From the NCBI GenBank assembly GCA_025544715.1, contig GCA_025544715.1_4109.3: a stretch of 64,000 bases of DNA; one strand, given 5' to 3'. The stretch is from Escherichia coli. GTDB taxonomy: Bacteria > Pseudomonadota > Gammaproteobacteria > Enterobacterales > Enterobacteriaceae. The notes under the pieces were generated by a model that did no database searches, was not told the DNA's origin, and saw only the letters and a list, made by a program, of their open reading frames with translations. The position numbers were made by a program, and so were the translations under genes. This document shows positions 8,884-58,306 of this stretch, piece by piece; the stretch's first letter is position 1; the number at the start of each line of letters is the position of its first letter.

Positions 8884-8894
8884 ATAATTTTCCT

Positions 8895-8919: not shown

Positions 8920-8928
8920 CAAATACAT

Positions 8929-9496: not shown

Positions 9497-9953
9497 TAGG
9501 GTATTTTTTCATCAATTCGTGTAAACGCTGAATCTCTTGTTCTTTTTTTCTATCACTCTCGTATTTTCGAGAAAGTTTCTTTTTTGTATTTGCTTCTTCT
9601 AATCTAATATCAGTACAGAATTTGTCATTTTTTAAAAAATTCTTACGCAATGCATTGTAAACAGCATTGAAATCGTTTCCTAATTCTTTAGAAGTGTCAG
9701 TGTAATTATGAAAATATATGTTATTTGTCATATTTACATGTTCAATTACTGCACCATTATGAGTTACGATAAACATTATATCGCCATACTGTTCATGTGG
9801 TTCTGTACGATACAGATATATATGTTTACGTAGATAATCTTTTAATTCATGTTCAATGCCACTTTGTTCATAACTTTGATATACTAAAACCTCACCATCA
9901 GTTGAACTGTTGTCAGATTCATATGGTTCGCGGATAATTATAAGATTATACAT
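9474..9953 (-). CDS. hypothetical protein (159 aa)
   Basis: ORF. Confidence 0.45.
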   Translation of the reverse strand: MYNLIIIREPYESDNSSTDGEVLVYQSYEQSGIEHELKDYLRKHIYLYRTEPHEQYGDIMFIVTHNGAVIEHVNMTNNIYFHNYTDTSKELGNDFNAVYNALRKNFLKNDKFCTDIRLEEANTKKKLSRKYESDRKKEQEIQRLHELMKKYPNEVQHGS

Positions 9954-22932: not shown

Positions 22933-25662
22933 TTATTTCCAACGTGTACCTGGACCTGATGGTACACCAGTACTGGCAGGTATCGCTGAACCACGTTTCG
23001 TTGTACTTGGGCGATATGTCAAAAAACGAGTCACTTTTTCAGTATCAATCGAAGTAATTCCTGAAGTTCCAGTAACTATCTTACCAATGTAAGTGCTAGT
23101 TAAAGATTCATCAATAGTTTCAGTACTAATAACATATGACGCTTTCTTAGTATTCCTGTTCATTTGTATATACAAATAGAACGTAGTATTAGCTGGATTA
23201 CTTTTTACCGTACTTAAATCTACACTTTGTATAGGTAGTCTGTCGAAAATTCCACCTAAAAACACCGGAACTTCACGTGTAAAGTACACTGAGAATCCTT
23301 GTGCAACGTCTTGTGATACTACCACAATCTTTTCTTTAACGCTACCATTTCCGCTAATTAAACCATCCATTTCAGCAGATGTTGTACCAAAAACGCTGAA
23401 TACAGATTTGGTTTGATAGTCAGAATCTTGAAAATTGTAATATCCAAAACCAACACCAGGAATAACACCATGTTGATATGCTGCACCGAGTTGGATGTAA
23501 CTAGATGACAAAAAACGATTTGATGTTATGACACCATCTACCGTTTTAGCTATCATCATCTTAAATTGTGCATTACCTGGTTGTGAAAATTGATGAACTG
23601 CATCAACACCAATGTAACCGAATCCTGAATATTTAGCAACTGTTAGACCAGTACAACGTTTCATATATGCTTCAGTAATAATTCCTGTAACAGAACTAAG
23701 TGTCTCATATCTAGTACTTACCAATGAAGCTGAAGTTATGTTAGTTCCAGATAATACAACATCAACTTCGGCATAAATTGCATAACCTTGGTTATTGTTA
23801 AGATTATATGCTGAAACTACTGCAATGGATTTAGAAAAAGTATTATCAGGTACATAATATAATACAATTTGTCCAGATAGTGTACCAACAATGCCAGAGT
23901 TTCCTAGATTAGCAAAAATATCTTGTTTTAATGATTCTAATACCGTTGGTTCTATTGTATATGTTTCATCAAATTCTAAAGTATCTGGGTTTAATAATCC
24001 ACCACTTGTTTTATATACACCTTCAATGAATGATGTTCCATAGCATCTAACACTACCATCGGTATCAACAAGAGAAATCATAGCAGTGTATGTAAAATCA
24101 TCACCTATTTGTTTACGATTAGATTGTGGTGCAAAACCATTTAATGTAGTATTATTTTGAACTGAGTTATATTGATATGTTGGTTGTGAGCCTATTTCAG
24201 AAAAAACAGTATTATTATAATTATATGTTACATCATCATACGTACCAGAACATGCTAATAATATTTTTCTATTATCGATGAAACGTACACCTAATAGGTT
24301 TGCACCAACAGCACTACCAAAAACTGGTAAAACGTTTGCATTTATAACGTTACTTGCGGATCTAGTACTAGCAACCCATGAATCAAACGGTGTGCCACTA
24401 ACCTTATATCGTTGTAGACCATAAAATTCAGTTGAACTCCATCTAAATTTAGATGCAAATACTAAACCATCTTTGGTTTGACATAAACCACCTGCGTTTC
24501 CTAATACACCAGCAGCAGTTGTCCCAGTGAAGTTGACCATATCGATTTCAAATGGGTTAGAAACTTGAAATCCATTATTATATGAAACTGTAGCAGGAGC
24601 ACGAGCAGAACCATCTAGTGACATAGATTTTGAGTTTATATTATAAACAAAACTGATACCAGTACCATACACTGTTGAAATATATAAAGGTGTAACCATT
24701 CTATGTGTTGGGTATAAAGTTACACGTATTTTGGATAAATCAGTACTAACGTTTGCTTGTATATTAAAGTCTGTATAATCCGAAAATTCTACACGTGAGA
24801 CTGGTGATGTAACTTCGAATAATGAATCCGAGCTAGTACCAACACTATATAATCTATCAAACACTCTTATGTTATTAGATGCAGAATAACTTGTATTTCT
24901 AACAGTTTGCCCTGATAATCCAGTAACTTTTGTTAATGATGCCATTGAGCTTGCTTTCACATCACTTAGCTCTACTGTATAAATTGAAAGTGCTAATCCT
25001 AAATTAGAAACACTTTTATCTTTACACCAAATATATACTTTTGTTCCAACAATATGAGTATATATAGGCATATCATTACCAAAAGAAGTACTTGGTACTT
25101 TAGCATGAATATGTGATACTTCGTTGAATGTACCATTAGTTATAGTAAAAATATAATTATCTTCTGTACTTAAACATCCAAGCATTTCATAACCATTAGA
25201 GCCAATAAAATACTTAATATTCTCTGTACTACTCATAATTGAAGGTTTATACATTGAATTGGTTGAAATAACACTTTCTTGTGAAATCATGGTTATATTT
25301 CTGATTTCTCGTATAAATGAATAATAAAAACCTTTAGTACTGCCATTCGTCCCACTACGTAGAACAACAGCAGTACCATCATCTTCAATAATAGTCGGTT
25401 GAACAACTTGATCACTTGACATAGGTGTAGCACCTTCATACGACCCACTTACGTTTAATGGTAAGTAATCCATTTCTCCTACACGTGATATAGGCAACAT
25501 ATCTAAAATACTTTGAACTTCAGAACGCTTGTATATTGGATATTGAACAATTCCAGTATTTGCATTCGGTGAGGTTCCATTGAAAGTACGCATAGCGTAC
25601 CTTCCTCCAATTGCTAAGTTCCCAAGGATCTCGGCACTTCCTATAATTCGTTTTGATGACAT
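22933..25662 (-). CDS. tail fibre protein (909 aa)
   Basis: S/T/N/G-rich beta-type sequence; N-terminal MPIS..G..YLP..VSG and DGT.VLLRSGTNGS shared with 26278..28974; C-terminal domain shared with both neighbours; start re-assigned to MSSKR with AAGGAA RBS (track 25752). Confidence 0.6.
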   Translation of the reverse strand: MSSKRIIGSAEILGNLAIGGRYAMRTFNGTSPNANTGIVQYPIYKRSEVQSILDMLPISRVGEMDYLPLNVSGSYEGATPMSSDQVVQPTIIEDDGTAVVLRSGTNGSTKGFYYSFIREIRNITMISQESVISTNSMYKPSIMSSTENIKYFIGSNGYEMLGCLSTEDNYIFTITNGTFNEVSHIHAKVPSTSFGNDMPIYTHIVGTKVYIWCKDKSVSNLGLALSIYTVELSDVKASSMASLTKVTGLSGQTVRNTSYSASNNIRVFDRLYSVGTSSDSLFEVTSPVSRVEFSDYTDFNIQANVSTDLSKIRVTLYPTHRMVTPLYISTVYGTGISFVYNINSKSMSLDGSARAPATVSYNNGFQVSNPFEIDMVNFTGTTAAGVLGNAGGLCQTKDGLVFASKFRWSSTEFYGLQRYKVSGTPFDSWVASTRSASNVINANVLPVFGSAVGANLLGVRFIDNRKILLACSGTYDDVTYNYNNTVFSEIGSQPTYQYNSVQNNTTLNGFAPQSNRKQIGDDFTYTAMISLVDTDGSVRCYGTSFIEGVYKTSGGLLNPDTLEFDETYTIEPTVLESLKQDIFANLGNSGIVGTLSGQIVLYYVPDNTFSKSIAVVSAYNLNNNQGYAIYAEVDVVLSGTNITSASLVSTRYETLSSVTGIITEAYMKRCTGLTVAKYSGFGYIGVDAVHQFSQPGNAQFKMMIAKTVDGVITSNRFLSSSYIQLGAAYQHGVIPGVGFGYYNFQDSDYQTKSVFSVFGTTSAEMDGLISGNGSVKEKIVVVSQDVAQGFSVYFTREVPVFLGGIFDRLPIQSVDLSTVKSNPANTTFYLYIQMNRNTKKASYVISTETIDESLTSTYIGKIVTGTSGITSIDTEKVTRFLTYRPSTTKRGSAIPASTGVPSGPGTRWK

Positions 25663-25678
25663 CTTTCTTTTCCTTAAT

Positions 25679-26266
25679 TTACCAACCAATTGTACCAGTT
25701 TCTGATGGTTTCCCAGTACTGACTGGGAATGAAGAACCTTTTTGTGTAACACTAGGTCTATATGTACTAAATCTGGATACTTTATTAATGTTTATATTTG
25801 TAATGCCACTTGTACCAACGGTAAGAGTTCCAATAAACATTATAATTTCAGATTCTTGTATTTGTGTTGGTGATACTTTATATATTGGTTCACCGAGAAC
25901 TAACGTTGCATATACATATTGTGTTTGTGTCCCAGATGAAACTGTTGAAGCAAAAATAGAAACTGCTGGAAATTTATAAAGATAACCACCAATAAATGAT
26001 GGTATTTCTCTATTAAATGTAAGACTATAACCAGACGAAGTAATATTTAGACTTGCATCATCATACAATTCACCGTATTGTGTGAGTGGTAATCCATTTA
26101 CAATAAAATTAACTTCATCTTTAGTAATAGAGGGGAATGTACATTCCCCATTTGAATTTGTTGGGTAATAAGTCATATTATTACCTAATACACCAAGTCC
26201 AGTACTTTTACCCTGTACTGTAACTTGTTGCATTGCCTTAAGGTCTGCTCTTATTTTATATGCCAT
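25679..26266 (-). CDS. tail fibre distal-domain paralog (195 aa)
   Basis: Standalone copy of the C-terminal roughly 130-aa domain of both long fibre genes, ending ...TYRPS...KGSSFPVSTGKPSETGTIGW. Confidence 0.55.
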   Translation of the reverse strand: MAYKIRADLKAMQQVTVQGKSTGLGVLGNNMTYYPTNSNGECTFPSITKDEVNFIVNGLPLTQYGELYDDASLNITSSGYSLTFNREIPSFIGGYLYKFPAVSIFASTVSSGTQTQYVYATLVLGEPIYKVSPTQIQESEIIMFIGTLTVGTSGITNININKVSRFSTYRPSVTQKGSSFPVSTGKPSETGTIGW

Positions 26267-26277: not shown

Positions 26278-28974
26278 TTACCAGTTTATGGTTCCTGTTT
26301 GTGATGGTAGACCGTAGCTAACTGGGAACGATGAACCTGCTGATTCAAGTGAAGCACCAAATATATCTAAACGTGAACGTTTTTGTATATTAATTGTTTC
26401 GATTTGAATTGCATTAGTTTGAATTGTACCTATCCAAAAAATATTATATGCAGTTGTTCCTGTTTCAGAAATAACATCAGTAGTTATGTAATAGTTTGCC
26501 AATCCTTGGTCCAATTTAACATATACATAAAATGTTGTATTTGCTGGATTAGACTTAATAGTTCTCAAATCAATATTTGAAACTGGTAGTGAAAATGACT
26601 TACCTGAAAGAATAACTGGTGTTTCTTCTGTAAAATATACAATAAACCCTTGAGCAACGTCCTGTGATACTACGTTAATTGGGCTACCTTGTGCAGTCCA
26701 GTTATTATAGTCTGTAATCGTTGTCCCATATTTTTTGAATGTCATTTTATTTGAGTAATCCATTGGTTCAAAAATTCCAAAACCAATACCAGGTAACGCT
26801 GCTGGTTGACTTCCCTGTTCATAACTGGCATGAGAACCAGTAATTATAAAACTTGTAAATTGTGCAGTTGATTTAGTTACATATGCTCTAAATTGATGAG
26901 TTGCAGTATTACCTATTGTTGGATGTGATAATGGGTCAGAACCACCAATGAAGTAGAATGAACCTCCATCATATATTGTCAAACCAACAGAAGAAGATGC
27001 AATCGAACCATTTCCAGTTGGTGTAAAGTTATCACCATACGTATTCTCAAGTACTAAACGCTTGAATGTAATAGATGTAATATTACCAACTCTAGTATTG
27101 ACGTTAACTTCAGCAATTCTAATATAGTTTCTATAATCATTAGTAATTGTACTCAACATAACAAAAGCTGGAATGTCTGTTTGTTGTGGAACAAATAGTG
27201 TCATATCACGGTATGCTTGTGGTGATAAATTCCAATCACTTAGAACTTTAGCATATTCAGTATTTCTAAAATTGTCCAGTACTGATTGTGTAACACTTAT
27301 AATGCCTGTACCATTTAAGTTTTTATCATAGGATAATGATTGTGAATAACGTTGCCCAACCATAAAAATACCACCATTGGTTGTAACAGTTGACCCAGAA
27401 ATACTACTAATGAAAATTCTATTATTTGCATTATCATCAACGTTAGCACGTTCAACTGTAGGTTCATAACCTTGTATTGTTCCTAAAGATAATGATTTAA
27501 ATGTAAAATTAGGAGTACTTTTATGAACTGCATATGATGGTCTAAATCCACCACTACCTGATGCACGTGAATATTGTTTAGTACTGTTATCTGGTAGTAA
27601 TTCTACACCATTAATAAATGAACCAACCGCTGAACCAAAAGACGGGCGAACTATACCACCTTTGAAGTCAGTAGAAAGTACAGCACGCACATTCAGCATA
27701 CTATAAACTATTTGAATAGGAAACTTAGCTTTTTGCATAAGCAATGGTTCTGCTAAGTTTGGACATGCAGTACAAAATGCTTCACCTGAATTTAAATAAA
27801 AATATGAACTGTAAATATTCCTTGCATTTGCATGGTTATACAATGGATCGTTATTTAAAACGTTTCCAGTAGGAACTAATGCTGAACCGGTATCAGTAAT
27901 AACTAATGGTGCTTGGTATGAACCAATATCATTACCTGCATCTAATGTACATTGTTTAGTACTCATGTTGAATACAAAACTGTAACTATGTTGTGGTCGT
28001 GTATTATAAGTTGCCATTGTGAACCAAGCATCACCATTCATTCTAAAGCGGAAGTTCTGTGTACCTGGCTGCTGTGCAACACATAAATCGATTGATGTCA
28101 TGTAAATCCCAATACCACGTAGATTTTTTGGAACATACACATAAGGTTTATCAGCGATATTTGTTGATGTTACCTGATTAGTTATAACCATATTATTTTG
28201 TGCAGAATAAGTTGTGTTATAAAATGTTTTAGTAGTCCATCCAGTAACACGAGTTGCGGTATAAGTACCATTACTGATATTATAAACCACTTTAACTACA
28301 ACTAATTGTAATTGGTTATTTGCATTAAGTACGTTAAAAACATATATAGAACCATCTTCTGCCATCATAGCATATTCAATACCACCTTCAGGTGATATAT
28401 CTGCTTGGTTAACGAAAAAACCAGTATGCAATTTATCATCTAATGTACCATTAGTAATTGATATGAACAAACCATTAGTACTGTTAGAAGTGTCTACATA
28501 TCTACCGAGTAAAATATTTGGATCAGTATTGTATAAGCCAATTGCGACTCGATTAGAACCGAAAAAACCAGGCTTGTATTGACGACTGGTGTTAATTGTA
28601 CGGCTCATGTCATCAACTGATAATGCGTTAGCCAAATATGAATAAAATAATCCCTCAACACTACCGTTTGTTCCACTACGTAAAAGTACTAGTGTACCAT
28701 CGTTTTCTAATAAAATTTTATTTCTACGTTGGGTCTGGTTTTCGGATGCACCATTGAAATCTCCAGAAACACCAGCAGGTAGATAGTTTTGTGAACCATA
28801 ATGGGAGATTGGCATCATGCTTACTATATCTAGTACTTCATCTCTGGAATACGTGTCTAATTCCATGTTACCATTTGAATCAAACACTTGTTCATTTATT
28901 CCTTGAATTGTTCTTTTACCATTAACTGTCACATTATGTGTGACATCTAAGCCACCATATATTTTCTTTGACAT
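26278..28974 (-). CDS. tail fibre protein (898 aa)
   Basis: Paralog of 22933..25662 at both termini; preceded by TATAAATA late promoter. Confidence 0.6.
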   Translation of the reverse strand: MSKKIYGGLDVTHNVTVNGKRTIQGINEQVFDSNGNMELDTYSRDEVLDIVSMMPISHYGSQNYLPAGVSGDFNGASENQTQRRNKILLENDGTLVLLRSGTNGSVEGLFYSYLANALSVDDMSRTINTSRQYKPGFFGSNRVAIGLYNTDPNILLGRYVDTSNSTNGLFISITNGTLDDKLHTGFFVNQADISPEGGIEYAMMAEDGSIYVFNVLNANNQLQLVVVKVVYNISNGTYTATRVTGWTTKTFYNTTYSAQNNMVITNQVTSTNIADKPYVYVPKNLRGIGIYMTSIDLCVAQQPGTQNFRFRMNGDAWFTMATYNTRPQHSYSFVFNMSTKQCTLDAGNDIGSYQAPLVITDTGSALVPTGNVLNNDPLYNHANARNIYSSYFYLNSGEAFCTACPNLAEPLLMQKAKFPIQIVYSMLNVRAVLSTDFKGGIVRPSFGSAVGSFINGVELLPDNSTKQYSRASGSGGFRPSYAVHKSTPNFTFKSLSLGTIQGYEPTVERANVDDNANNRIFISSISGSTVTTNGGIFMVGQRYSQSLSYDKNLNGTGIISVTQSVLDNFRNTEYAKVLSDWNLSPQAYRDMTLFVPQQTDIPAFVMLSTITNDYRNYIRIAEVNVNTRVGNITSITFKRLVLENTYGDNFTPTGNGSIASSSVGLTIYDGGSFYFIGGSDPLSHPTIGNTATHQFRAYVTKSTAQFTSFIITGSHASYEQGSQPAALPGIGFGIFEPMDYSNKMTFKKYGTTITDYNNWTAQGSPINVVSQDVAQGFIVYFTEETPVILSGKSFSLPVSNIDLRTIKSNPANTTFYVYVKLDQGLANYYITTDVISETGTTAYNIFWIGTIQTNAIQIETINIQKRSRLDIFGASLESAGSSFPVSYGLPSQTGTINW

Positions 28975-34457: not shown

Positions 34458-34684
34458 TGTGCATCCTTCGGAACAGTATTAAGACGTTTGCGATTCACAA
34501 TCTTCCTGCACATGAGATTAAGATCTTGCCCATGACGCATAGTATGACATGCATATAGTGTTCCTTGATGATTTAGTTTTGTTAAACCTTGACGGATGAT
34601 TTCAGCATCCATCTCATCAACTTTAGGAGCACAGCCACTGAGAAATACAATAGAAGAAATAATAAAAATATATAATAATTTCAT
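34454..34684 (-). CDS. lipoprotein (76 aa)
   Basis: Signal peptide with lipobox LSGC. Confidence 0.5.
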   Translation of the reverse strand: MKLLYIFIISSIVFLSGCAPKVDEMDAEIIRQGLTKLNHQGTLYACHTMRHGQDLNLMCRKIVNRKRLNTVPKDAQ

Positions 34685-34687
34685 AAT

Positions 34688-34867
34688 TTAATCACCTATA
34701 CATAAGTACTCGATTGATGGTTTACCATTAACTAACACAATTCCAGTGTGAGTTAATACACAGTTGTCGGGAGCTTCTTCAAACACTGATACGTAAATGT
34801 ATGAACCATTACTAACTGAACAAGATAATACCATAATAACTGCGATTAGTACAAGTAAAATTTTCAT
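34688..34867 (-). CDS. small secreted protein or lipoprotein (59 aa), not in ORF track
   Basis: Signal-peptide-like MKILLVLIAVIMVLSC; ATGA overlap with upstream gene. Confidence 0.35.
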   Translation of the reverse strand: MKILLVLIAVIMVLSCSVSNGSYIYVSVFEEAPDNCVLTHTGIVLVNGKPSIEYLCIGD

Positions 34868-35523
34868 ATAAACCTACTTTTTGATTTATGTAATGCAATT
34901 TGTACTCGTGTAATGAACTCACGCTGTACTTCTTCAGCACTGTATCCTTCATATTGTGTCTTGAAAAGTTCCATTGCTTTTAGTGCCATCTGTACAGAAA
35001 TGTCTGTAATACTTTCTGTACTGGTGCTTTCAAATACGTTTTTGAGAGTTAGTTCACCATCACAAACATCATCAACTACAACTGGGGTATTGTTTTGTTC
35101 ATCAATGTAACGTAAAGCTTTGTACTCTGCTTTTGTTAGATTTTCATACCAACGTGGGTGGTGGAACAAATCATGCATTGTAACTTTTGCTGCTTCCATG
35201 AGAAGTAATAGCTCTTCATTTCTGCGAATATGTTTTTCTTCACCTTTATGATTTTTGTAAGTATATGCACAACGCATAATGGCTAATCGAACTTCACCTG
35301 CTTTGGTGATAGTGTATGAATGTATTGCATTATCATAATCACTTTCCCATTTCTGACCAGCATATTCGTACCAAAGTTCATTAGTTTCCCATTTAATGAA
35401 ATCAAATTCTAACAAACTGTCAATCAACTTAGCCAAATTACCACTGTACTCACGGCTAATGATATTGAAACCACCATTGTACTTTGCAAGGTACAGAATC
35501 TTTTCTTGAGTTACATTTTTCAT
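34864..35523 (-). CDS. hypothetical protein (219 aa)
   Basis: ORF. Confidence 0.45.
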   Translation of the reverse strand: MKNVTQEKILYLAKYNGGFNIISREYSGNLAKLIDSLLEFDFIKWETNELWYEYAGQKWESDYDNAIHSYTITKAGEVRLAIMRCAYTYKNHKGEEKHIRRNEELLLLMEAAKVTMHDLFHHPRWYENLTKAEYKALRYIDEQNNTPVVVDDVCDGELTLKNVFESTSTESITDISVQMALKAMELFKTQYEGYSAEEVQREFITRVQIALHKSKSRFI

Positions 35524-36920: not shown

Positions 36921-38360
36921 TTACATATTTTCTTCAGCAAATTCAGCCAGTGGTGAACGAACAACACCTTCTAGTTCGATGACACGACAACCTGCCCAGT
37001 CTTTAAACTTCTCAGTTACATAAGTCAAACCACTGTTAACTGGACTAATAAACTTACTGTCAATCTGACTCAAGTTACCCATAATTACTACTTTACAGTT
37101 TAACCCTGCTCGTGTCAAGATGGTTTTTGCTTGTGCAGGTGTAATGTTTTGGAATTCATCAACTACTAGAATAGTGTTGGTGAATGAACGTCCACGTACA
37201 AAGTTTAGTGCTTTAAATTGAATAACATTACGTTTCATAATCTCTTCAATACTACCTTGTGGGTTAGCATCATCTTTATGAAGAAACTCTAACGCATCAA
37301 TCGCGGCTCCACAGAATGGAATCACTTTTTCTGCTTCTGAACCTGGCAAGAAACCAATATCTTCAAACTGTGAGTCTTGAGTTTTAGAGAAGATGATTCG
37401 GTCGTATTTACGTTTTTCCAGTACTAATTCCAATGCAGTAGCAATCGTAATTAGTGTTTTACCAGTACCAGCAGAACCTAGCAGTACTGTTAGATGTACA
37501 TCAGGATCGAGAATACTGTTGATAGCGAGTGCTTGTTGGATATTCTTTGCTTTAATATCCCATACTTTAGCACGTAAAGCCACTGATTGTCCAATGTCTT
37601 GGAATACCAAAATATCTTCTGGTGTTAGTGTTCCATCATCTTCCTCAATTGCTGATTGTCCTTCGTACACAAATAATACGTCAGCATCATCATATAGGTA
37701 ATCACCGATGCATAGATTTTGTGGAAGCAGATGTTCAATCAAGCTTTTAGAAATGTAATGATACAAACGACGACCAACTTGTTCGGATTGAATATTAGTA
37801 TTGGTTAAGTTGCTGTATACTTCCCAAAAATTGATTTCCAGATGGTGTTGACCAATGTGAATCAAATCACTATCACCAATAACAATATCATGGCGATAAT
37901 CTTGTACCTCGACACCATAACTTAGTGCTTTGATACGCATGTTGATATCACGAGTTACCAGTACTGATTCTGTTGCTAAAGCTACCAGAATGATTTTATC
38001 ATCAGGTACAGTACTTTTGAGAAGGGTTTGAACTTTCTCTTCTGTACCTTTAGTACGAATTAGTGCCTCAGCTTCTTCGTTTGTAATAACAAACAATTTG
38101 CTATCAGGATTCATATTGGTATGAACATCAGCAATATTAACACCAGTACTACTAATCTCGTCATGTGATGCATCTGCAATAATTGCTTCAATGTTACGAA
38201 TAGCAACACGTGCATCGCGTGAAACATCTACATTACGACTCTTAATCGAATCTAATTCTTCCAGTACTGTAAATGGTAGAATGATTGCAGCACCATCAAA
38301 AGCAATAGATGCATTAGGGTCAGATAGTAGTACGTTTGTGTCAATTGTATATTTTTTCAT
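36921..38360 (-). CDS. phoH: PhoH-like ATPase with N-terminal PIN domain
   Basis: N-terminal PIN-like IDTNVLL...D, Walker A GSAGTGKT, 479 aa. Confidence 0.8.
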   Translation of the reverse strand: MKKYTIDTNVLLSDPNASIAFDGAAIILPFTVLEELDSIKSRNVDVSRDARVAIRNIEAIIADASHDEISSTGVNIADVHTNMNPDSKLFVITNEEAEALIRTKGTEEKVQTLLKSTVPDDKIILVALATESVLVTRDINMRIKALSYGVEVQDYRHDIVIGDSDLIHIGQHHLEINFWEVYSNLTNTNIQSEQVGRRLYHYISKSLIEHLLPQNLCIGDYLYDDADVLFVYEGQSAIEEDDGTLTPEDILVFQDIGQSVALRAKVWDIKAKNIQQALAINSILDPDVHLTVLLGSAGTGKTLITIATALELVLEKRKYDRIIFSKTQDSQFEDIGFLPGSEAEKVIPFCGAAIDALEFLHKDDANPQGSIEEIMKRNVIQFKALNFVRGRSFTNTILVVDEFQNITPAQAKTILTRAGLNCKVVIMGNLSQIDSKFISPVNSGLTYVTEKFKDWAGCRVIELEGVVRSPLAEFAEENM

Positions 38361-38420: not shown

Positions 38421-38723
38421 TTACATATTTGGTTCGTATTCAACATAGCAACGTGAACCTCGAACCTTTTCTTCCCAGCACTCCTGGTAAACAAGTTGAC
38501 CAATTGAAACTGGTTCTCTTGATAGTCCATTACGTACTTCACCACTTTGGGTTTTATACATGAATGAACATTTGGACTCGCTACATTGTCCTAAACTAAC
38601 AACTTCTGCGGTATTGTAGTGAATGTTGGTACGCTTAGTGTTCTCGTGATACTGTCCGAACCAAAGAACTCCTGCACCTAACAGAACAGTACAAATAAGA
38701 CTTTTAATGTGTGTTTGAATCAT
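38421..38723 (-). CDS. exported/membrane-anchored protein (100 aa)
   Basis: N-terminal hydrophobic segment; Cys-rich. Confidence 0.45.
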   Translation of the reverse strand: MIQTHIKSLICTVLLGAGVLWFGQYHENTKRTNIHYNTAEVVSLGQCSESKCSFMYKTQSGEVRNGLSREPVSIGQLVYQECWEEKVRGSRCYVEYEPNM

Positions 38724-39040
38724 AATGCGTTAAATCCATTGTTTAAGTATGTTTCAATATTAATTTTACCAACAGGATTACTACTGTGAACAAAGTACTC
38801 AAACGGTTCTTTAATATTATTATCAAACATATAATCAATAAGAAACTTAGCAAAAGAATATCCAGTCTTTTCGTCTTCGCTCACATCACCCAAGTCATGG
38901 TCGAATGATACAAATGCTGGAATTCCATTTTCAATAACATATTCACATGCACTTTTAAAGTCACGACATACCACCATATCTTGGTTTGGATAATATAGAT
39001 TTGCATCACGAATATCATCCAAAAACATTGAGTAAGACAT
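38720..39040 (-). CDS. hypothetical protein (106 aa), co-transcribed with Nudix/Sir2
   Basis: ORF overlapping upstream gene by 4 nt; no motif recognised. Confidence 0.45.
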   Translation of the reverse strand: MSYSMFLDDIRDANLYYPNQDMVVCRDFKSACEYVIENGIPAFVSFDHDLGDVSEDEKTGYSFAKFLIDYMFDNNIKEPFEYFVHSSNPVGKINIETYLNNGFNAL

Positions 39041-39049
39041 GTTAAACTC

Positions 39050-39601
39050 CTATAGATAACTAATTAGTAAGTTTTCTTTTTGAACCAGATACTCCAATTC
39101 TTGTTTTGCTGTACCGATGAAGTTCTGTGTCATAAGATTATTATATCCCGCTTCTCGATTTTGTCCCTTAGAATAACGAGAAATATGACATAAATTTACA
39201 CCAGCAACTTCAGCACTCGCATGTTTAGCATTAGTGTATCCATCTCTAATGTGTTTCAACTCGTCATAGCTTACTTCATAGCTAAAACTATGACTGTTTG
39301 CACCTGGGTAAATTTCAAAAGTTTTGAGTGGTCGGAGATGGGAAACAAAAATATTGTAATCCATTTCTTCTTGAACTTCACGACGCAATGCATCTTCTAA
39401 TGAGATATCAGTACTTTCTACGGTTCCACCACATCCACCAAGAAGACCATCCCATCGTAATTGTAGTAAAACTAAATTTACTTCTGGTATATCATTCAAC
39501 TCATAGTTTTTGTAAGGGTTGCATTTTCTTGCAAAGAAATAACAAAATACAAAATTTGCACGTGAGCCATATTCACCAAAGGGAACTTCTTTAACACTCA
39601 T
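39050..39601 (-). CDS. Nudix hydrolase (183 aa)
   Basis: Nudix box GGCGGTVESTDISLEDALRREVQEEM; ATGA overlap with Sir2 gene. Confidence 0.55.
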   Translation of the reverse strand: MSVKEVPFGEYGSRANFVFCYFFARKCNPYKNYELNDIPEVNLVLLQLRWDGLLGGCGGTVESTDISLEDALRREVQEEMDYNIFVSHLRPLKTFEIYPGANSHSFSYEVSYDELKHIRDGYTNAKHASAEVAGVNLCHISRYSKGQNREAGYNNLMTQNFIGTAKQELEYLVQKENLLISYL

Positions 39602-40356
39602 TTCATACGTTCCTTAATTATAGTCTCTAGATGTGGTATTGCTTTGGTTGCTGGCTTGATAACTTTTTCATTAAACAAAAAATCATTATCATTTTTACGA
39701 ATGTTAACATTAACACTATAACATGGCAATGCTGCTGCTAATCTCGACCATACCAGTACTGTATCGCTACTACCAATTACAATAACTGTATCATTTTCAT
39801 TAAGAGATTTCAACACATTATTTCGTTCTTCGTAAATTGGTAAGCGAATACCATCAACATAACGATGATATTCTCCAATCATTACTACATTTGGTTTAGC
39901 AAAAACATCATGCTTTGGTATGTATGGTTCGTATCCGCAGTTAATAACATTATAATCATCGGAATTAATACTATAATTTTCAATAACTTCGCACAAGTTT
40001 CCATGAAGTTTAAGCTCATGACCACCAATACGAGTATAAAGATCATCCATGTTAGAAGTCATATGAAGGAAGCAATCACCATATTGATCTTCTAACGATT
40101 TTATAAAATAATGCATTGCATTGGGTTCGCATTGTCCCAATTTTACACGTAATGTATTATAGAAGGAATGAACAACGTGATATTTTGTAGTTAAACTAGC
40201 AATGTTACATACATCATTAATTTTAAATGTATCCCACAAACCATCATCAAATCGAAAAGGTTCCATACCACTTTCAACGGAAAGTCCTGCACCTGATATA
40301 ATCAGTAATCGTTTTTTACCTTCATTGCTTATAAATTTTTCTGATATCATATTCAA
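39598..40356 (-). CDS. Sir2-family (sirtuin-fold) NAD-binding protein
   Basis: ISGAGLSVESGMEPFR (GAGIS..SG.P.FR) and SNMDDLYTRIGGHELKLHG (NxDxL...LHG catalytic His); no zinc-ribbon CxxC pairs seen. Confidence 0.6.
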   Translation of the reverse strand: MNMISEKFISNEGKKRLLIISGAGLSVESGMEPFRFDDGLWDTFKINDVCNIASLTTKYHVVHSFYNTLRVKLGQCEPNAMHYFIKSLEDQYGDCFLHMTSNMDDLYTRIGGHELKLHGNLCEVIENYSINSDDYNVINCGYEPYIPKHDVFAKPNVVMIGEYHRYVDGIRLPIYEERNNVLKSLNENDTVIVIGSSDTVLVWSRLAAALPCYSVNVNIRKNDNDFLFNEKVIKPATKAIPHLETIIKERMK

Positions 40357-40359: not shown

Positions 40360-40554
40360 TTATAAAAAACCAATTAAATATATTGATAATAACAGAATGA
40401 TTCCAATATGATAGGCATACATAAAATTATTATCTTTGTGATAACCTTTGGATGTCAAGTCCCTATATAAGCATTTAGCATTGTTATAAATTACAACAAT
40501 AGAAAAAACTATAAAAAAACTCAAAACCCATTCATAAATTGTGTATGCCATCAT
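40360..40554 (-). CDS. small two-TM membrane protein (64 aa)
   Basis: Two hydrophobic helices. Confidence 0.4.
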   Translation of the reverse strand: MMAYTIYEWVLSFFIVFSIVVIYNNAKCLYRDLTSKGYHKDNNFMYAYHIGIILLLSIYLIGFL

Positions 40555-40572: not shown

Positions 40573-41169
40573 TTAATACTTTAAAACATCAAACTCTGCA
40601 CTTACACTAGTTACATTATCACTGACAATTTTAAAAATTGATTTGATGCGTTCATGTAGTGGTACTTTTGATTCATTCTCAACTTCAATATATGCTTGCA
40701 TTGCTGCAATAGCATGATATGTCCCGCTACCTACGGCTGTGATTCGTGTTTTCGGTTGAAGAACTGAAAAATCTTCTTGAACTTCATAAATTGTATGATT
40801 GTGGAGAATGATGAACTGACCACCACCTACTTCTTGTGAAGGATCACGAGAACCCCATTCCTCTTTGAACATTTGACGAATAATAGGAATAACTTTCAGT
40901 ACTAAGTACTGTGGGAACGTCTCATTGGCATCTTGCTGTGGTAGATTCAAACTGTAAGTAAGAAGTTGACCCATACGGAATGATGTGGTGTAACCAATCG
41001 CCATAATTTCTTTTGTACGGGTCAAACCAGCATCATCATTGATTTTAATGAATTCTTTCTCAAATACTTTAGGCTCAGTTTGAACTGATTTTGTGAAACC
41101 ATTACTTCCTAGTTTGTCCCCTGCAATAAAAGAAGTTACACCATCAGTGTGTGCAATGATACATGTCAT
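40573..41169 (-). CDS. HslV/proteasome-beta-like Ntn-hydrolase peptidase
   Basis: MTCIIAHTDG...IAGDK and ITAVGSGTYHAIAAMQAY resemble HslV TTIVSV...IAGDGQ and IAIGSGG.YA.AAARAL; start re-assigned to ATG giving N-terminal Thr (ATGA overlap with upstream stop; track 41238). Confidence 0.55.
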   Translation of the reverse strand: MTCIIAHTDGVTSFIAGDKLGSNGFTKSVQTEPKVFEKEFIKINDDAGLTRTKEIMAIGYTTSFRMGQLLTYSLNLPQQDANETFPQYLVLKVIPIIRQMFKEEWGSRDPSQEVGGGQFIILHNHTIYEVQEDFSVLQPKTRITAVGSGTYHAIAAMQAYIEVENESKVPLHERIKSIFKIVSDNVTSVSAEFDVLKY

Positions 41170-41426
41170 AAAATAGCTCCAATTGCAAATAAAGTTGTAT
41201 ATAAAATATAAATCAATGTACCTAATAACATTAGACACACCAAATATGATGTTGCCAGAACATAATAAATTATTGCTTCAAACTTTGAATTGAACTTCAT
41301 TGTTGTGTTATCAATAAAGCCATTTTTGTAATCTTTGTAAATGAAAACTGTTAGGAAAAGTACAGTAATATACATCACTACTGTAGCATAAAAAATAATA
41401 GATGTCAAATTTTGGATGTTTGTCAT
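41166..41426 (-). CDS. membrane protein (86 aa)
   Basis: Multiple hydrophobic helices. Confidence 0.4.
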   Translation of the reverse strand: MTNIQNLTSIIFYATVVMYITVLFLTVFIYKDYKNGFIDNTTMKFNSKFEAIIYYVLATSYLVCLMLLGTLIYILYTTLFAIGAIL

Positions 41427-41496
41427 AGTTATATAATCTCAATATAATTAATAACAAAGGAAGTACAACATAATCATCCTGTTATTTTAATTATTT

Positions 41497-42105
41497 TTAT
41501 TGGTTTACTGATCCATATCGGATTAGTTCAGTTTTTGTCAAGATAACAACATCTTCACCACGAGAACGGCTAACTTTATATAGAACGTCTGGTGGAATTC
41601 CATTTGCAGAATATAGTGTAAATAGAAAACCTACTTTAGTTGCCATTTCTTCAGTAAAAGTTGATAGCTGCCTAACTGATACAAAAGAATTATCACCGTC
41701 TTTAACATTACTTTTAATAGAAATGTTATGAAGTCCCAGTACTGAGCGATTTATCATGTATCGCTTTTCAAAAGCTACACTAAAGAATACCACAGTACAT
41801 GCTGAGTTGCAATACCTAGAAACAATTAAATTTATACCATTGTCTCTAACGAAGTTTGCCATTTTAATTCCAGCATCAAAATCACCACCTGGTGATGTGA
41901 TTGTAATGGTATCATAGTGTTCTTTATCATACAACTCCATCATACGCTTGAGTGATCCATCTGTAATATCTGAGATGAAATATACATTACGTGTTTCTGG
42001 ATTGTACTTTATCACATTTTTACGTTCAACACCAGCACTGGCTGGAAAATTTATCAACATCAGAAGCATTACTGCTTGTACTACCTCAAGCCATAGTCTT
42101 TTCAT
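41497..42105 (-). CDS. secreted ClpP/S49-fold serine-peptidase-like protein
   Basis: Signal peptide MKRLWLEVVQAVMLLMLINFPASAG; ITSPGGDFDAGIKMANF resembles the ClpP/SppA SPGG serine motif; AAGGA RBS. Confidence 0.45.
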   Translation of the reverse strand: MKRLWLEVVQAVMLLMLINFPASAGVERKNVIKYNPETRNVYFISDITDGSLKRMMELYDKEHYDTITITSPGGDFDAGIKMANFVRDNGINLIVSRYCNSACTVVFFSVAFEKRYMINRSVLGLHNISIKSNVKDGDNSFVSVRQLSTFTEEMATKVGFLFTLYSANGIPPDVLYKVSRSRGEDVVILTKTELIRYGSVNQ

Positions 42106-42133: not shown

Positions 42134-42141
42134 TATAAATA
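42134..42141 (+). promoter_or_regulatory. T4-type late promoter TATAAATA (plus strand)
   Basis: Exact TATAAATA about 147 nt upstream of the only plus-strand gene pair. Confidence 0.35.
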
Positions 42142-42287
42142 ATATAGTACTTAAACACTTAAGTCAAACTTTTTCTGTACTTAACTCAAATTTCCCTCAT
42201 CAGATAATCCCCTTAGTACAATCACTGTGAAGATTCTATCACAAACCCATACCAAATGTAAAGCTTTTTTTATAAGGAGTGCCCTTC

Positions 42288-44213
42288 ATGGGAAAACCAA
42301 TTGCAGGACAAGACCAATTTCCATTCACTATAGGTGGATATTTAGTTGATGGTGCAAACATAAAAGGTACAACATATGTAAAATCGTTGTACATCTACAA
42401 ACAGCGTTCCTCTGATTTGTATGATTTAATGGATTCAAATGGAACAATATATCGTTTTATTCGTATTGTTGGATATGGTCAAGATGGTAACAGATTAAAT
42501 TATTTTACACCAGCAGAAGAAATTGTACCAAATCTGGCGACCAATACATTTTTTATAAAAGTTCAAGATGCTGAAAGAAATATATTTTCATTTGTTAGAT
42601 TGTACCAATTAAATAAAATAATAACATTCGATGGTGATTATATTTTTAGAAAAATAGATAAAGATCGTTATCTAAGTGGTGTGTTAATTCAACCATCATT
42701 AACTACATTACAAGTTGGTAAAACCAGTTCACTGCATTGTGTATTCTACCCTAATGATTACTATGATACTGATGGAACTTGGTACATAAACGACCATTCT
42801 GATATAAATCCAGAAATACCTAGTAAGTATGCTAAAATCATAGAATATAATAAAAATGAAGTATCTATTGAAGGAACATCGGTGGGTATGTCAATACTTT
42901 CATTTGTTCCTAAAAATAATAAATCCATAATTTCACATTCTCTTATTAACATTGTTAATGAAAATGTAGATATAGAATACATGGTTGCCGAAAGAAGTTC
43001 TCCATTTTTTAATCATTATATTGGCAATGAATGGACTATTCAAATAGTCACATATCCGTATGACGCGACTATACAATACCCTCTTGAAATCGTAATCGAT
43101 GCGGAAGTAGATCCTTATATGAAAATTGCCACTACCGAGTTAGTTGGAGTCTCTGAAAATAATAAAATATATACATTTAAATCAACACTTGAGCCAGATT
43201 TAGAATATTATATAGATTATTATCCACAAATCACCTTCACTATGAATGAACCTTACAAATTTAGTGCATTGTTTGAAAATAAAATTTGTTTGTCTGGTTG
43301 GGAAAGATATTGTGAAAAAATTACCAGTCCTGGAAAGTTATTTTCTATTGATGAATATGTACGTCCAAACACGACTAAAACATTAAAATATTGGTTAATG
43401 AATGATTATGACCAACATATGTATCCAATACGTTCAACTGATGATGAAATTGCCACAATTGATGTAACAACTGGTATATTGAGAACTTACGATAAAAGAG
43501 GAACAGTATCTTTCTATACAAATTATACTGATATAACTACTGGGGCCATTAGTCAAGATGAATATTTAGTTGGGAAACTAACCGTTACAGACGATGTGTA
43601 CGATTTAATCGAGGTAGAACCATCAAATATACAATATATGTTCCCAAATCAATCACAACAATTCACGTTAACTGGTTATAGAGAAGGTTATCCAAATACA
43701 TCTTTTAATGTTAATGTAAGTATGTTGAACAATTATGCAACTTCTTCAAACAATATCGTCACTATTAACGAAAATACATCTAATAACTCTAGATTTAAGA
43801 TAGTATCAGATTTCAATGGTAATTATAAAAACTTTAGTAGTATATATTCTAATCAAACACCATCTATTATAGTAAAAACAAATCCAAATGATTTAACTCC
43901 AATACAAAGTATTGATGTTTCTGAAAATGAAATTTTATCTATAAGAATGGCTGAAGAAAATGAAATAGATGATTATAAAGTTAGTTTTTATCCAAAACCA
44001 AATTATTGTGTTAATTATGAACTTGAAATTGTATCATATGATAATACTATAATTGAAATATATGATAAAGAAAATGCATTAAAAAACGGGCTAAATTATT
44101 ATGGTAATATTATGTTATACATAACACCAAAAAGTCCTGGAAGTACCGAGATTGTTGTTAGATCTGTTCATTACCCAGATGTACAACAATCTGTAAAAGT
44201 AGTTGTTTATTAA
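42288..44213 (+). CDS. virion-surface-type protein with bacterial Ig-like (Big_2-like) repeats
   Basis: ATG with AAGGAG RBS (track gives GTG at 42279); segments such as IQPSLTTLQVGKTSSLHCVFYPND and the C-terminal block fit Big_2-like patterns; N-terminal 110 aa duplicated in next gene. Confidence 0.5.
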   Translation: MGKPIAGQDQFPFTIGGYLVDGANIKGTTYVKSLYIYKQRSSDLYDLMDSNGTIYRFIRIVGYGQDGNRLNYFTPAEEIVPNLATNTFFIKVQDAERNIFSFVRLYQLNKIITFDGDYIFRKIDKDRYLSGVLIQPSLTTLQVGKTSSLHCVFYPNDYYDTDGTWYINDHSDINPEIPSKYAKIIEYNKNEVSIEGTSVGMSILSFVPKNNKSIISHSLINIVNENVDIEYMVAERSSPFFNHYIGNEWTIQIVTYPYDATIQYPLEIVIDAEVDPYMKIATTELVGVSENNKIYTFKSTLEPDLEYYIDYYPQITFTMNEPYKFSALFENKICLSGWERYCEKITSPGKLFSIDEYVRPNTTKTLKYWLMNDYDQHMYPIRSTDDEIATIDVTTGILRTYDKRGTVSFYTNYTDITTGAISQDEYLVGKLTVTDDVYDLIEVEPSNIQYMFPNQSQQFTLTGYREGYPNTSFNVNVSMLNNYATSSNNIVTINENTSNNSRFKIVSDFNGNYKNFSSIYSNQTPSIIVKTNPNDLTPIQSIDVSENEILSIRMAEENEIDDYKVSFYPKPNYCVNYELEIVSYDNTIIEIYDKENALKNGLNYYGNIMLYITPKSPGSTEIVVRSVHYPDVQQSVKVVVY

Positions 44214-44229: not shown

Positions 44230-44607
44230 ATGAAAGCTATAGCAGCACAAGGTAAATTACCATTCAATATCGGCGGCTTTTGTGTAACCGCAGCTAATAT
44301 AAACGGTGAATTGAAATATAACTTGAACATCTTTAATCAACGTTCTAGTTGTGTTTACGATCTTATCGACACTGATTTTAATGTTTATCGTTTTGTAACT
44401 ATAACAAGTTTTGATAAAGATAAAATCAGATTAGACGCATCTAAAACTGCACTAGAGATTGCACCAACTTTAGCAAAAAATACTTTTTGTATTAAGATTG
44501 ATGATAGTGCATTTGCCGAATCATTCCAGTTTCATAAAATTAAATTGAGTACTGGAGAAATGAAATATCACCCTTGGGATTTGTATTATTGTAACATCCC
44601 TGGTTAA
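44230..44607 (+). CDS. standalone paralog of the N-terminal domain of 42288..44213 (125 aa)
   Basis: Shares G.LPF.IGG..V..ANI.G...Y, QRSS.vYDLiD, YRFV.I, NTFcIK; AAGAGGAAA RBS. Confidence 0.5.
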   Translation: MKAIAAQGKLPFNIGGFCVTAANINGELKYNLNIFNQRSSCVYDLIDTDFNVYRFVTITSFDKDKIRLDASKTALEIAPTLAKNTFCIKIDDSAFAESFQFHKIKLSTGEMKYHPWDLYYCNIPG

Positions 44608-44639
44608 CAAAAAAGGAGCCACAAGGCTCCTTTTTTTTA
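44608..44639. terminator. bidirectional rho-independent terminator
   Basis: A7-ggagcc-acaa-ggctcc-T8; ends both the plus module and the convergent minus gene. Confidence 0.6.
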
Positions 44640-46456: not shown

Positions 46457-46485
46457 TAAAAAGAGGAATCCAGTACTGGATTCCT
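46457..46485 (-). terminator. rho-independent terminator
   Basis: aggaatcc/ggattcct stem with AGTACT as the loop, T-run on minus strand. Confidence 0.5.
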
Positions 46486-46943: not shown

Positions 46944-47261
46944 TTATTCTTTTACCTCATCAGTTTGAATGTATTTTTTGTCAGAGAATGTACCGTGTTC
47001 TTTACGCACAGCTTCTGCATGTTGAACCGCATCAACTGGATTAATGTTCTTTTTAATTAGTACTTCTTTCATTAATTCAAGTACAATTGCAAAACCATTT
47101 AGTACACGCTCAGATTCATCCACATTTTTTAACTCAAGTGCTACTGCACTAATTTGATCGAACGCAACATTAATAAAATCGGAATCTTCTAATACATTTG
47201 CTACTTCCGTATTATTACGTACTAGTACTTTCATATAATCTCCACAAAGATGATGCCCCAA
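46944..47261 (-). CDS. hypothetical protein (105 aa)
   Basis: ORF. Confidence 0.45.
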   Translation of the reverse strand: MGHHLCGDYMKVLVRNNTEVANVLEDSDFINVAFDQISAVALELKNVDESERVLNGFAIVLELMKEVLIKKNINPVDAVQHAEAVRKEHGTFSDKKYIQTDEVKE

Positions 47262-47282
47262 ATTGAGGCATCAAAATCTATC

Positions 47283-48012: not shown

Positions 48013-48041
48013 ATTATATCACTAAGATTTAAAATGTCCAA
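48013..48041 (-). promoter_or_regulatory. sigma70-type promoter (TTGGAC-N17-TGaTATAAT)
   Basis: Minus strand: -35-like TTGGAC (48041..48036), 17-nt spacer, extended -10 TGATATAAT (48021..48013); upstream of clpP. Confidence 0.45.
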
Positions 48042-57373: not shown

Positions 57374-58306
57374 TTAGAAATTTCCTTCTGCAACTTGAAA
57401 AACTTTCAAGCCAAGTAGTTTACGCCACATGAATACAACTTGATCGCGGTCATCATAAACCTTTTTAACATCGTAATGATCAACCACATTTTTCATGTAC
57501 AGGTCGAATTTTACAACATCATCGGGACGTTTATCATCGATGTCTCGCATAAACAATGCATCGTAAGGAACACCCCAATTCTTAAGCCACTGTTCGGTAT
57601 CAGCACGACACCCTTCAGTACGCCCACTCATGACGATAATCTTGCGTTTATGAAAAACTGCTTCAGCGATAATAGACAAAATAACTTCTTCATCTGGTGT
57701 ATCCTGAAGAACAGTACTTTCATCGTAAGGATTACGACCCCATTTATGAGCAAGAGTACCGTCAATATCAACGATAACAGCAGCTTCTCGTGAATTACCA
57801 TAGTAACCAATGTGCATGGCCTTACTATAATAGTACGTATCTGCCATAGTGTCAATGATATTATCTTGTACAGAACGCTCACGCATGAGGTTACGTTTCT
57901 TACAAAGTTTTACGAACTCTTTAATCTTAAAGAAAACATGAACATCTGCACCACGATCTTCATTCGGTACAAAATCTTCGTAGAAGTTCTTTTCTTTGTA
58001 GTCGTATTCATTATCTTTAGCCCAACGTTTCCATTCATCACGGAAATGTTGTTTAAGGTTCGTATCGGACACAATGATGTTCCAACCATTCTCTGCTGCT
58101 GAATTTGCTGCACTGAACTGCATTTTAGTTACGTACTGCTCATTAGCGTCGTTGAATTTGTATGCATCATGTGACCCAGCCATAGATTCACGAATATCAT
58201 CACGGTTGATGTTGATAGTCTTTGATTTGGCATTTTTAATTTCTTGAACTGCCCATGTAGTTTTACCACAACCAGGCAACCCAACTGTTAGTGTAATAGT
58301 TGGCAT
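57374..58306 (-). CDS. pseT: polynucleotide 5'-kinase/3'-phosphatase
   Basis: Walker A GLPGCGKTT, phosphatase DxDGT motif IVDIDGTLA; overall similarity to T4 Pnk. Confidence 0.85.
   Translation of the reverse strand: MPTITLTVGLPGCGKTTWAVQEIKNAKSKTININRDDIRESMAGSHDAYKFNDANEQYVTKMQFSAANSAAENGWNIIVSDTNLKQHFRDEWKRWAKDNEYDYKEKNFYEDFVPNEDRGADVHVFFKIKEFVKLCKKRNLMRERSVQDNIIDTMADTYYYSKAMHIGYYGNSREAAVIVDIDGTLAHKWGRNPYDESTVLQDTPDEEVILSIIAEAVFHKRKIIVMSGRTEGCRADTEQWLKNWGVPYDALFMRDIDDKRPDDVVKFDLYMKNVVDHYDVKKVYDDRDQVVFMWRKLLGLKVFQVAEGNF

Follow-up and report, generated by a model that had tools for sequence, protein, structure and literature searches.

Escherichia coli ClpP is an S14 peptidase that forms part of the ClpAPS N-degron protease, and HslV (ClpQ; T1B) and BPH represent group I of the proteasome-like peptidases. 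Phage-spread proteasome homologues, termed PPH, AAH and CPH, were placed in the HslV/BPH group by Fuchs, Alva and Lupas (2021; PMC8665760), with WP_035979212 and WP_008185288 as the reference sequences of AAH and CPH, respectively. A ClpP/crotonase-type fold that follows an N-terminal signal or anchor is found in SppA (S49), in NfeD and in ‘peptidase’ proteins of Vibrio, Shewanella and Pseudoalteromonas, and the ClpP-like prohead proteases of tailed phages share their fold with phage ClpP-type proteins. For jumbo phages, Iyer et al. list ClpP, ClpS, ClpA and ClpX among the genes and suggest that the ClpP acts on host proteins, so that a remodelling of host proteostasis by jumbo-phage ClpP has already been suggested in print (PMC7824862). 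Here we analyze three protease genes, encoding an HslV-like protein, a ClpP-like protein with a hydrophobic N-terminus and a canonical ClpP, in a 64,000-nucleotide stretch of DNA (‘the window’ in the following) from contig GCA_025544715.1_4109.3 of an assembly deposited as E. coli (GCA_025544715.1).

The window has a G+C content of ~33% and comes from a giant coliphage of the Rak2/121Q group, an Asteriusvirus that shares ~97% identity with Escherichia phage 121Q. Positions 40000-48000 were aligned to 121Q (348.5 kb) with 97% identity across 78% of their length, and to ~20 other Asteriusviruses, including PBECO4, phAPEC6, G17 and Sharanji, with 93.5-94% identity; the segment without a 121Q counterpart is a 1.9-kb plus-strand open reading frame (ORF) at 42279..44213. 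The initial annotation had proposed three distinct protease folds in this region, and the ORFs, profile searches and structure models agreed with it. On balance, we consider it probable that the genes encode three intact proteases of independent origin, probably active, none of which matures the phage head, and that ClpP belongs to a phage ClpA-ClpS-ClpP machine. All three genes are of known kinds, real and ordinary, and have already been annotated as proteases in public genomes, since the 121Q records name gp475 ‘peptidase HslV family; protease (ClpYQ-like)’ (the HslV-like gene), gp473 ‘protease (ClpP-like)’ (the ClpP-like gene) and gp464 ‘head maturation protease; protease (ClpP-like)’ (the canonical ClpP gene). 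Their value to a genome scan is small, because the genes and their likely roles already stand in annotation and in comparative-genomics papers, where they have been discussed.

A proteasome-like threonine peptidase

The longest ORF of the HslV-like gene covers 40573..41238 and begins with GTG at 41238. The true start is the ATG at 41169, as judged from an invariant Met1-Thr2, a GGAG located 7 nucleotides 5' of this ATG, its overlap as ATGA with the stop codon of the upstream 86-amino-acid ORF, and the use of the same start in the 121Q annotation. The resulting product of 198 amino acids opens with MTCIIAH. The initial annotation had reassigned the start, noting that this exposes an N-terminal threonine, and the alignment of 43 homologues, with identities down to ~30%, bears it out: M1, T2, D18, K34, G59, G147 and G149 were invariant throughout. 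After removal of Met, these residues give Thr1/Asp17/Lys33, with G59 as the equivalent of Gly47 and a GSG motif at 147-149. Thr1, Asp17, Lys33, the Gly47 equivalent and GSG match residues of HslV and of the proteasome beta subunits at the same positions of a shared fold. A threonine at position 2 allows Met to be removed by methionine aminopeptidase. As in E. coli HslV, where mere Met removal exposes the threonine, the phage protein presumably requires no propeptide.

Profile searches and structure prediction both placed the protein in the proteasome family. It matched the PHROG ‘peptidase HslV family’ with an E value of 1.5e-24, and its family profile matched the HslV chains of the PDB with E values of 1e-9 to 3e-7. 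The chains of E. coli and H. influenzae HslV were aligned to this profile over their full length, with T2 on T1 of HslV. Such PDB matches required family profiles for both the HslV-like and the ClpP-like protein, and a PDB search with the single HslV-like sequence returned only noise (e.g., recoverin and fluorescent proteins). The AlphaFold model (predicted local distance difference test, pLDDT, 92.5) shows the alpha-beta-beta-alpha sandwich of N-terminal nucleophile (Ntn) hydrolases with four flanking helices (64-73, 85-104, 150-162, 171-185). Its best fold matches in Foldseek were HslV (E 1.8e-10) and BPH (template modelling (TM) score 0.72-0.77), and proteasome beta subunits were matched as well.

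The label ‘HslV-like’ holds in the sense of a remote homologue within the proteasome family, but not in the sense of an HslV orthologue. The protein had no match in Pfam, including Pfam Proteasome, and with the NCBIfam HslV equivalogs TIGR03692 and NF003964, which require 157.75 and 137 bits, its scores were only 18.3 and 19.2 bits. It also differs from HslV and BPH by its own GYTTSFRMGQLL motif and, in the Asteriusviruses, by an insertion of ~15 residues (residues 40-56), and the phage lacks HslU according to tblastn of 121Q. The protein is thus a proteasome-like Ntn peptidase near HslV and BPH. It resembles PPH, AAH and CPH in being compact, propeptide-free, spread among tailed phages and close to HslV and BPH. 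An assignment to PPH was rejected, as PPH has ~140 amino acids and lacks helix H2, compared with 198 amino acids and four flanking helices here.

At least 595 relatives were confirmed in IMG/VR using a single peptide pattern, and the family was found in 197 records of isolated phages, including T5-like Epseptimaviruses and phages of Aeromonas and Vibrio, where it is labelled ‘peptidase HslV family’, ‘proteasome subunit’ or ‘putative proteasome’. It is a large and mostly phage-borne branch of the proteasome-like family. In two contigs of Myxococcota genomes, a bacterial member closes an apparent operon that also encodes a ParA/MinD-like ATPase and three unknown proteins (281-416 amino acids), a context wholly unlike those in phages.

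We also considered whether the HslV-like and ClpP-like proteins form an obligate pair. This was rejected, because ClpP-like neighbours were present in only ~4 of 86 loci and because Klebsiella phage K64-1 has the ClpP-like gene in syntenic position without the HslV-like gene. At 8001..9542 of a 119.7-kb metagenomic phage contig, a distant HslV-like gene (36% identical) is followed after 15 nucleotides by a gene for a 324-amino-acid protein with a weak ClpP-like core (CPGGS ... CASAA ... H), which matched the ClpP-like family with an hhalign probability of 64%; such a pairing is not general in the 86 loci.

A canonical ClpP, and ClpA and ClpS-like genes in 121Q

The third gene encodes a full ClpP, as had been proposed. 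It scored 141.3 bits against Pfam CLP_protease (PF00574; cut-off 20.2) and matched the ClpP chains of the PDB with E values of 1e-36 to 1e-26 (best 1.4e-36). Its identity with E. coli ClpP is 36%, and it has a complete triad S113/H139/D188 (E. coli S97/H122/D171) and the oxyanion residues G84/M114 (E. coli G68/M98). As in E. coli ClpP, there is an N-terminal loop motif and a pro-region, here of ~18 residues; a C-terminal extension of ~20 residues sets the phage protein apart. ClpP was found in 161 phage records, including every Rak2-like group sampled, PA5oct-like phages, Atu_ph07, phage G and Lak phages.

A sigma70-type promoter had been predicted in front of clpP. The motif alone occurs at chance level in such AT-rich DNA (71 sites compared with 71.7 expected). 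The GACA, TG and TAnAAT elements were invariant in the window, 121Q, phage Turkey3 and K64-1 while the flanks diverged, so that the core is kept from Asteriusvirus to Alcyoneusvirus. This conservation supports the prediction that the site, with its extended -10, works as a sigma70-type promoter, which would be read by the host RNA polymerase.

Possible partners of ClpP were sought outside the window. For this, the whole 121Q genome (NC_025447.1) was scanned locally. It encodes a full-length match to E. coli ClpA (gp581, 762 amino acids, 298257..300545; E 2.4e-180) with the D1 and D2 AAA+ modules and the D2-small domain. The sequence SIGM of gp581 aligns with SIGL of ClpA, placing IGM where the ClpP-docking IGL loop stands, and by sequence gp581 qualifies as a true ClpA orthologue. 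A ClpS domain above the Pfam cut-off was found in gp48 (181 amino acids, 34461..35006). ClpX and HslU genes were not found when the whole 121Q genome was searched by local tblastn with the E. coli queries, of which the ClpX sequence was confirmed by a 100% match; both queries matched the D2 domain of gp581 alone. A domain scan of the large ORFs in the window revealed no AAA+ unfoldase domains. Among the phage records, 178 carried a ClpA-like and 72 a ClpS-like gene, spanning the Rak2-like genera, and ClpA is reportedly conserved among Rak2-like phages, as stated in the Atu_ph07 paper.

Since 121Q has its own ClpA and a ClpS-like adaptor and lacks ClpX and HslU, ClpP most likely works with these phage proteins, at the centre of a ClpAPS machine that the phage owns, and not with the unfoldases of the host. 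Compared with E. coli, the docking loop of ClpA is equally placed, but the docking tripeptide is IGM instead of IGL, the ClpS-like protein is longer than the bacterial one, and the viral genes are scattered over the genome rather than gathered in one operon. In 121Q, gp48 adjoins IF3-like and KTSC/DnaJ-like genes and gp581 is embedded among tail and baseplate genes. Other proteostasis genes of 121Q encode the GroES-like gp58 and gp615, the DnaJ-like gp457 and an ‘Hsp70’ fragment, gp558.

A candidate exported ClpP-fold hydrolase

The 202-amino-acid ClpP-like protein scored 16.7 bits against Pfam CLP_protease, i.e., under the cut-off of 20.2, and a single-sequence search of the PDB gave only noise. 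Ten of its 11 close relatives matched the Pfam family (best E 8.9e-7), and the AlphaFold model (pLDDT 93.5) revealed a helix at residues 2-18, a linker and then a ClpP fold in which one long helix is handle-like. When this model was compared with the PDB in Foldseek, the top 50 matches were all ClpP chains, with TM scores up to 0.73. The alignment of the family showed invariant S71-P-G73-G74, C99-x-S101-x-C103 and H126, and profile alignments to ClpP structures placed S101 and H126 on the catalytic Ser and His of ClpP.

Close relatives, 14 in number, were restricted to Rak2-like jumbo phages. An exhaustive profile search revealed a wider family of 2,752 representatives (E up to 0.001), in a 42-sequence sample of which S71, G73, G74, C99, S101, C103 and H126 were again invariant. 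Those with names are ‘peptidase’ or hypothetical proteins encoded on the chromosomes of Vibrio harveyi, Aliivibrio, Shewanella, Pseudoalteromonas, Moritella and Janthinobacterium, and for most of them no Pfam domain is recorded; the closest bacterial relatives have 230-260 amino acids.

The description ‘ClpP/S49-like’ in the initial annotation was right for the ClpP-like half, given the S14-like fold and the Ser-His pair. The S49 half was rejected: Peptidase_S49 had no match, and there is no invariant Lys such as the Ser-Lys dyad of SppA would need. An SppA domain model was touched by one of 42 relatives (E 0.003). The phage protein further differs from other exported proteins of the ClpP clan by the family-specific CxSxC around its nucleophile, and no curated family covers it.

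The signal-like N-terminus that had been noted is present as well. It starts with MKR (K2-R3) and continues with the hydrophobic helix and ASA|G. A strongly hydrophobic N-terminus was found in 117 of 150 representatives of the wider family, many of them resembling signal peptides or lipobox-like sequences. The best description is that of a putative exported or membrane-anchored Ser-His hydrolase of the ClpP fold, belonging to an uncharacterised family.

Possible roles during infection

From these comparisons we infer how the three proteases may form complexes, which partners and substrates they may have, where in the cell they may act and when they may be expressed. ClpP, a true member of S14, would be read by the host RNA polymerase from the conserved sigma70-type promoter. 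Most likely it supplies the proteolytic chamber for a ClpA-ClpS-ClpP machine of the phage, whose ClpA and ClpS-like genes would lie in other parts of the genome. During infection, this machine would break down certain cytoplasmic proteins of the host or the phage, possibly those that carry N-degrons. The methionine aminopeptidase of the host would expose Thr1 of the HslV-like protein, which might then act as a self-compartmentalised threonine peptidase with no phage unfoldase as partner. The N-terminal hydrophobic segment of the ClpP-like Ser-His hydrolase would take this protein into the inner membrane or through it, and the targets would be envelope or periplasmic proteins or peptides.

A more far-reaching proposal, which we regard as doubtful, is that the Rak2-like jumbo phages maintain a multi-compartment proteolysis of their own, consisting of a private ClpA-ClpS-ClpP, a stand-alone threonine peptidase and an exported ClpP-fold hydrolase. 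The IGM loop would then have co-evolved with the altered pocket of ClpP, and the private ClpAPS would be orthogonal to the host system and would remove defence or regulatory proteins of the host via N-degrons. The proteasome-like peptidase would work alone, without an unfoldase, and the hydrolase in the envelope, its active site framed by a disulfide, would cut envelope proteins.

If the enzymes are active, this phage group would deliver to the cell a near-complete degradation toolkit made up of ClpA, ClpS and ClpP together with the proteasome-like peptidase and the exported ClpP-like protein. This would be a tractable system in which to study the remodelling of the host proteome by large viruses or their escape from protein-based defences. 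Two of the families, that of the proteasome-like phage peptidases and that of the predicted exported ClpP-like proteins with CxSxC, are large and wholly uncharacterised, and the first biochemistry on them would annotate thousands of sequences.

Alternative explanations

Several observations speak against parts of the joint reading of three active proteases with a phage-owned ClpAPS, and they are presented here together with the explanations that compete with it. One concerns the literature, in which our searches found no experimental study of any of the three phage proteases. Another concerns the HslV-like gene, the contexts of which vary: no neighbouring gene family recurred in more than 9 of 86 loci, and the gene was not present at the syntenic position in K64-1. 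With no conserved neighbour across phages and this gap in K64-1, it is an accessory insertion of the Asteriusviruses at this position, and its importance is uncertain. In the ClpP-like protein no third, acidic catalytic residue is conserved, since the Asp position 184/185 varies among 11 relatives (ED, EK, SR, NQ, DT).

ClpA and ClpS are attributed to the phage in the window from their presence in 121Q and other Asteriusviruses. The docking of ClpP to any particular unfoldase is likewise uncertain, as the pocket is only partly kept: at the positions that we take to form the pocket for IGF/IGL docking, the phage ClpP differs by Y60T, F82S, F112L and L114G. In a competing explanation, ClpP and the HslV-like protein dock onto the host unfoldases ClpX, ClpA and HslU and redirect host proteolysis. 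The N-terminal loop motif of ClpP and some of its docking pocket are kept, and with no ClpX or HslU of its own the phage leaves only the host HslU to the HslV-like protein; the proposal of Iyer et al. that jumbo-phage ClpP is used against host proteins (PMC7824862) points the same way. The complete ClpA with its IGM and the ClpS-like protein occur clade-wide, however, which makes a private partner the simpler one for ClpP; the pocket residues are unlike those of E. coli ClpP; and the HslV-like protein is only a remote relative of true HslV, with the related BPH having no known unfoldase. We regard host docking as rather unlikely overall, and host unfoldases, named in the initial annotation as candidate partners, are probably the wrong ones for ClpP in view of the ClpA and ClpS-like proteins and the lack of ClpX and HslU in 121Q. 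Docking and the joint reading are compatible and not mutually exclusive.

The export of the ClpP-like protein is opposed by two features of its N-terminus. Glu7 and Gln10 are invariant within the helix, which is unusual for a cleavable signal peptide, and the K64-1 homologue has neither an AxA cleavage motif nor a basic N-terminal region. For these reasons the segment may not be cleaved off as a signal peptide but anchor the protein in the membrane. Going one step further, the helix could serve as an anchor or in oligomerisation while the catalytic domain stays in the cytoplasm, in line with the two small membrane-protein genes next to the gene. This last version is improbable in our view, because most of the wider family has classical signal peptides or lipobox-like N-termini and the protein in the window itself has K2-R3 and ASA|G along with a hydrophobic core; an oxidising compartment would also suit the two invariant Cys on either side of the nucleophile.

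Phages inhibit host proteases, and the three proteins could accordingly be decoys or inhibitors that tie up unfoldases or proteases of the host and shield phage proteins, with catalysis being secondary. The diverged docking pocket of ClpP could suit a non-productive interaction of this kind. We think a decoy function quite improbable, since the catalytic residues are invariant over hundreds of diverged homologues in three families, which indicates selection on catalysis. The alignments asked for in the initial annotation showed the catalytic residues to be present, invariant in the HslV-like and ClpP-like families and forming the full triad in ClpP.

The initial annotation had considered prohead proteases unlikely, and none of the three proteins is the prohead protease. 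The head module of 121Q (portal gp598, gp21-like gp601, scaffold gp602, major capsid gp603) occupies 330.7-336.8 kb, and gp601, a T4 gp21-like ‘capsid maturation protease’, adjoins the scaffold and major capsid genes at 333-337 kb. The three protease genes lie at 214-220 kb, ~115-120 kb from this module. In the virion proteome of phAPEC6, which likewise has a dedicated gp21-like protease in its head module, the prohead protease is gp227c, and the homologues of the three proteases (gp345c, gp346c and gp353c) are absent; Sharanji has a separate prohead protease as well. In its separate gp21-type gene inside the head module, this phage group differs from phages that use a ClpP-like prohead protease, and T4 gp21 itself belongs to another family (S77). 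On the other side, RefSeq and PHROG label ClpP ‘head maturation protease’, PHROG 94 and related ClpP-like head protease families match it, one ClpP peptide (4.5% coverage) was present in the virion mass spectrometry of phage CBB, and weak matches to the NCBIfam model ‘head maturation protease, ClpP-related’ were seen for 31 of 42 ClpP-like relatives. With the dedicated gp21-like gene, the distance to it, the absence from phAPEC6 virions, a ClpP of full cellular type accompanied by ClpA and ClpS, and a promoter that is sigma70-type rather than late, a role of any of the three in virion maturation is very unlikely, and the head-protease reading was rejected.

Gene order and neighbouring genes

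The features of the protease region are listed in Table 1. On the minus strand, the order of transcription is ClpP-like, 86-amino-acid membrane protein, HslV-like, 64-amino-acid membrane protein, Sir2, Nudix, cREC receiver and PIN-PhoH. From the ATGA overlap, the 86-amino-acid ORF and the HslV-like gene are probably translationally coupled. The 86-amino-acid protein is kept in Turkey3 with 64% amino-acid identity. The 64-amino-acid ORF is intact and conserved in 121Q and in Turkey3, a diverged Asteriusvirus, although annotated in neither, and is probably a real gene for a small membrane protein.

Table 1. Coordinates of the three protease genes and of associated features in the window
Feature	Coordinates	Strand	121Q counterpart	Basis and remarks
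64-amino-acid ORF	40360..40554	-		Two hydrophobic segments; 3' of the HslV-like gene, before Sir2; conserved
HslV/proteasome-like Ntn threonine peptidase, 198 amino acids	40573..41169	-	gp475	Profile, alignment, model
86-amino-acid hydrophobic (membrane) protein	41166..41426	-	gp474	Stop overlaps the HslV-like start (ATGA)
ClpP-fold protein, 202 amino acids	41497..42105	-	gp473	N-terminal hydrophobic helix, SxGG, CxSxC, His
Promoter-like site TTGACT-17-TATTAT	42139..42167	-		5' of the ClpP-like gene; weak evidence
Hairpin, GC-rich, terminator-like, weak T tail	47251..47273	-		Directly after the clpP stop; sequence scan
Canonical ClpP, 231 amino acids	47283..47978	-	gp464	Pfam, PDB profile, triad
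Sigma70-type promoter, extended -10, TGGACA-16-TGaTATAAT	48013..48040	-		Before clpP; core kept across genera

In K64-1 the order is ClpP, dCMP deaminase, ClpP-like, cytidyltransferase, nicotinamide phosphoribosyltransferase, membrane proteins, Sir2 and Nudix. As both occur in the K64-1 neighbourhood, the ClpP and ClpP-like genes are ancestral to it. Downstream of the proteases, 38720..40356 (minus strand) encodes a Sir2 protein (252 amino acids), a Nudt16-like Nudix hydrolase (183 amino acids) and a cREC ‘cyclic-phosphate processing receiver’ protein (106 amino acids), and the Sir2-Nudix pair of K64-1 is preceded by the nicotinamide phosphoribosyltransferase and the cytidyltransferase. The cluster points to a module of NAD+/ADP-ribose metabolism, possibly directed against NAD-depleting defences. 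It is followed by a PIN-PhoH fusion protein of 479 amino acids (36921..38360, minus strand), the phAPEC6 homologue of which, gp341c, was found in virions (8 peptides, 31% coverage), unexpectedly for a PhoH-like ATPase.

The plus-strand ORF at 42279..44213 encodes 644 amino acids and is absent from 121Q and other Asteriusviruses; 121Q has a 132-nucleotide remnant, gp472. Its N-terminal ~165 amino acids are paralogous to the neighbouring 125-amino-acid virion protein (44230..44607), the phAPEC6 homologue of which (gp347) reached 75% coverage in virion mass spectrometry, and also to proteins of RaK2 and K64-1 that carry Ig domains and are labelled ‘structural’ or ‘major tail’. For the remaining ~480 amino acids at the C-terminus, there was no match in 50,697 phage records and none in Pfam. 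A strong terminator with a 12-bp stem (44609..44636) follows the plus-strand structural genes where transcription converges, and a perfect palindrome with a 9-bp stem (46464..46485) was scored as a terminator on both strands.

Further away, two adjacent minus-strand ORFs of 939 and 898 amino acids (22933..25752 and 26278..28974) apparently correspond to the hypothetical proteins gp501 and gp499 of 121Q, and neither contained a Pfam domain at E values up to 0.001. The minus strand of the window also carries RNA-repair or tRNA-related genes at 2747..3859, 19632..20864, 57374..58306 and 59403..60545. The first two, which were domain-scanned, encode nucleotidyltransferases of the CCA-adding/poly(A) polymerase family and of the RlaP type, and the other two, judged by their size and their place in the gene order, correspond to gp443 (polynucleotide kinase) and gp438 (RNA ligase) of 121Q.

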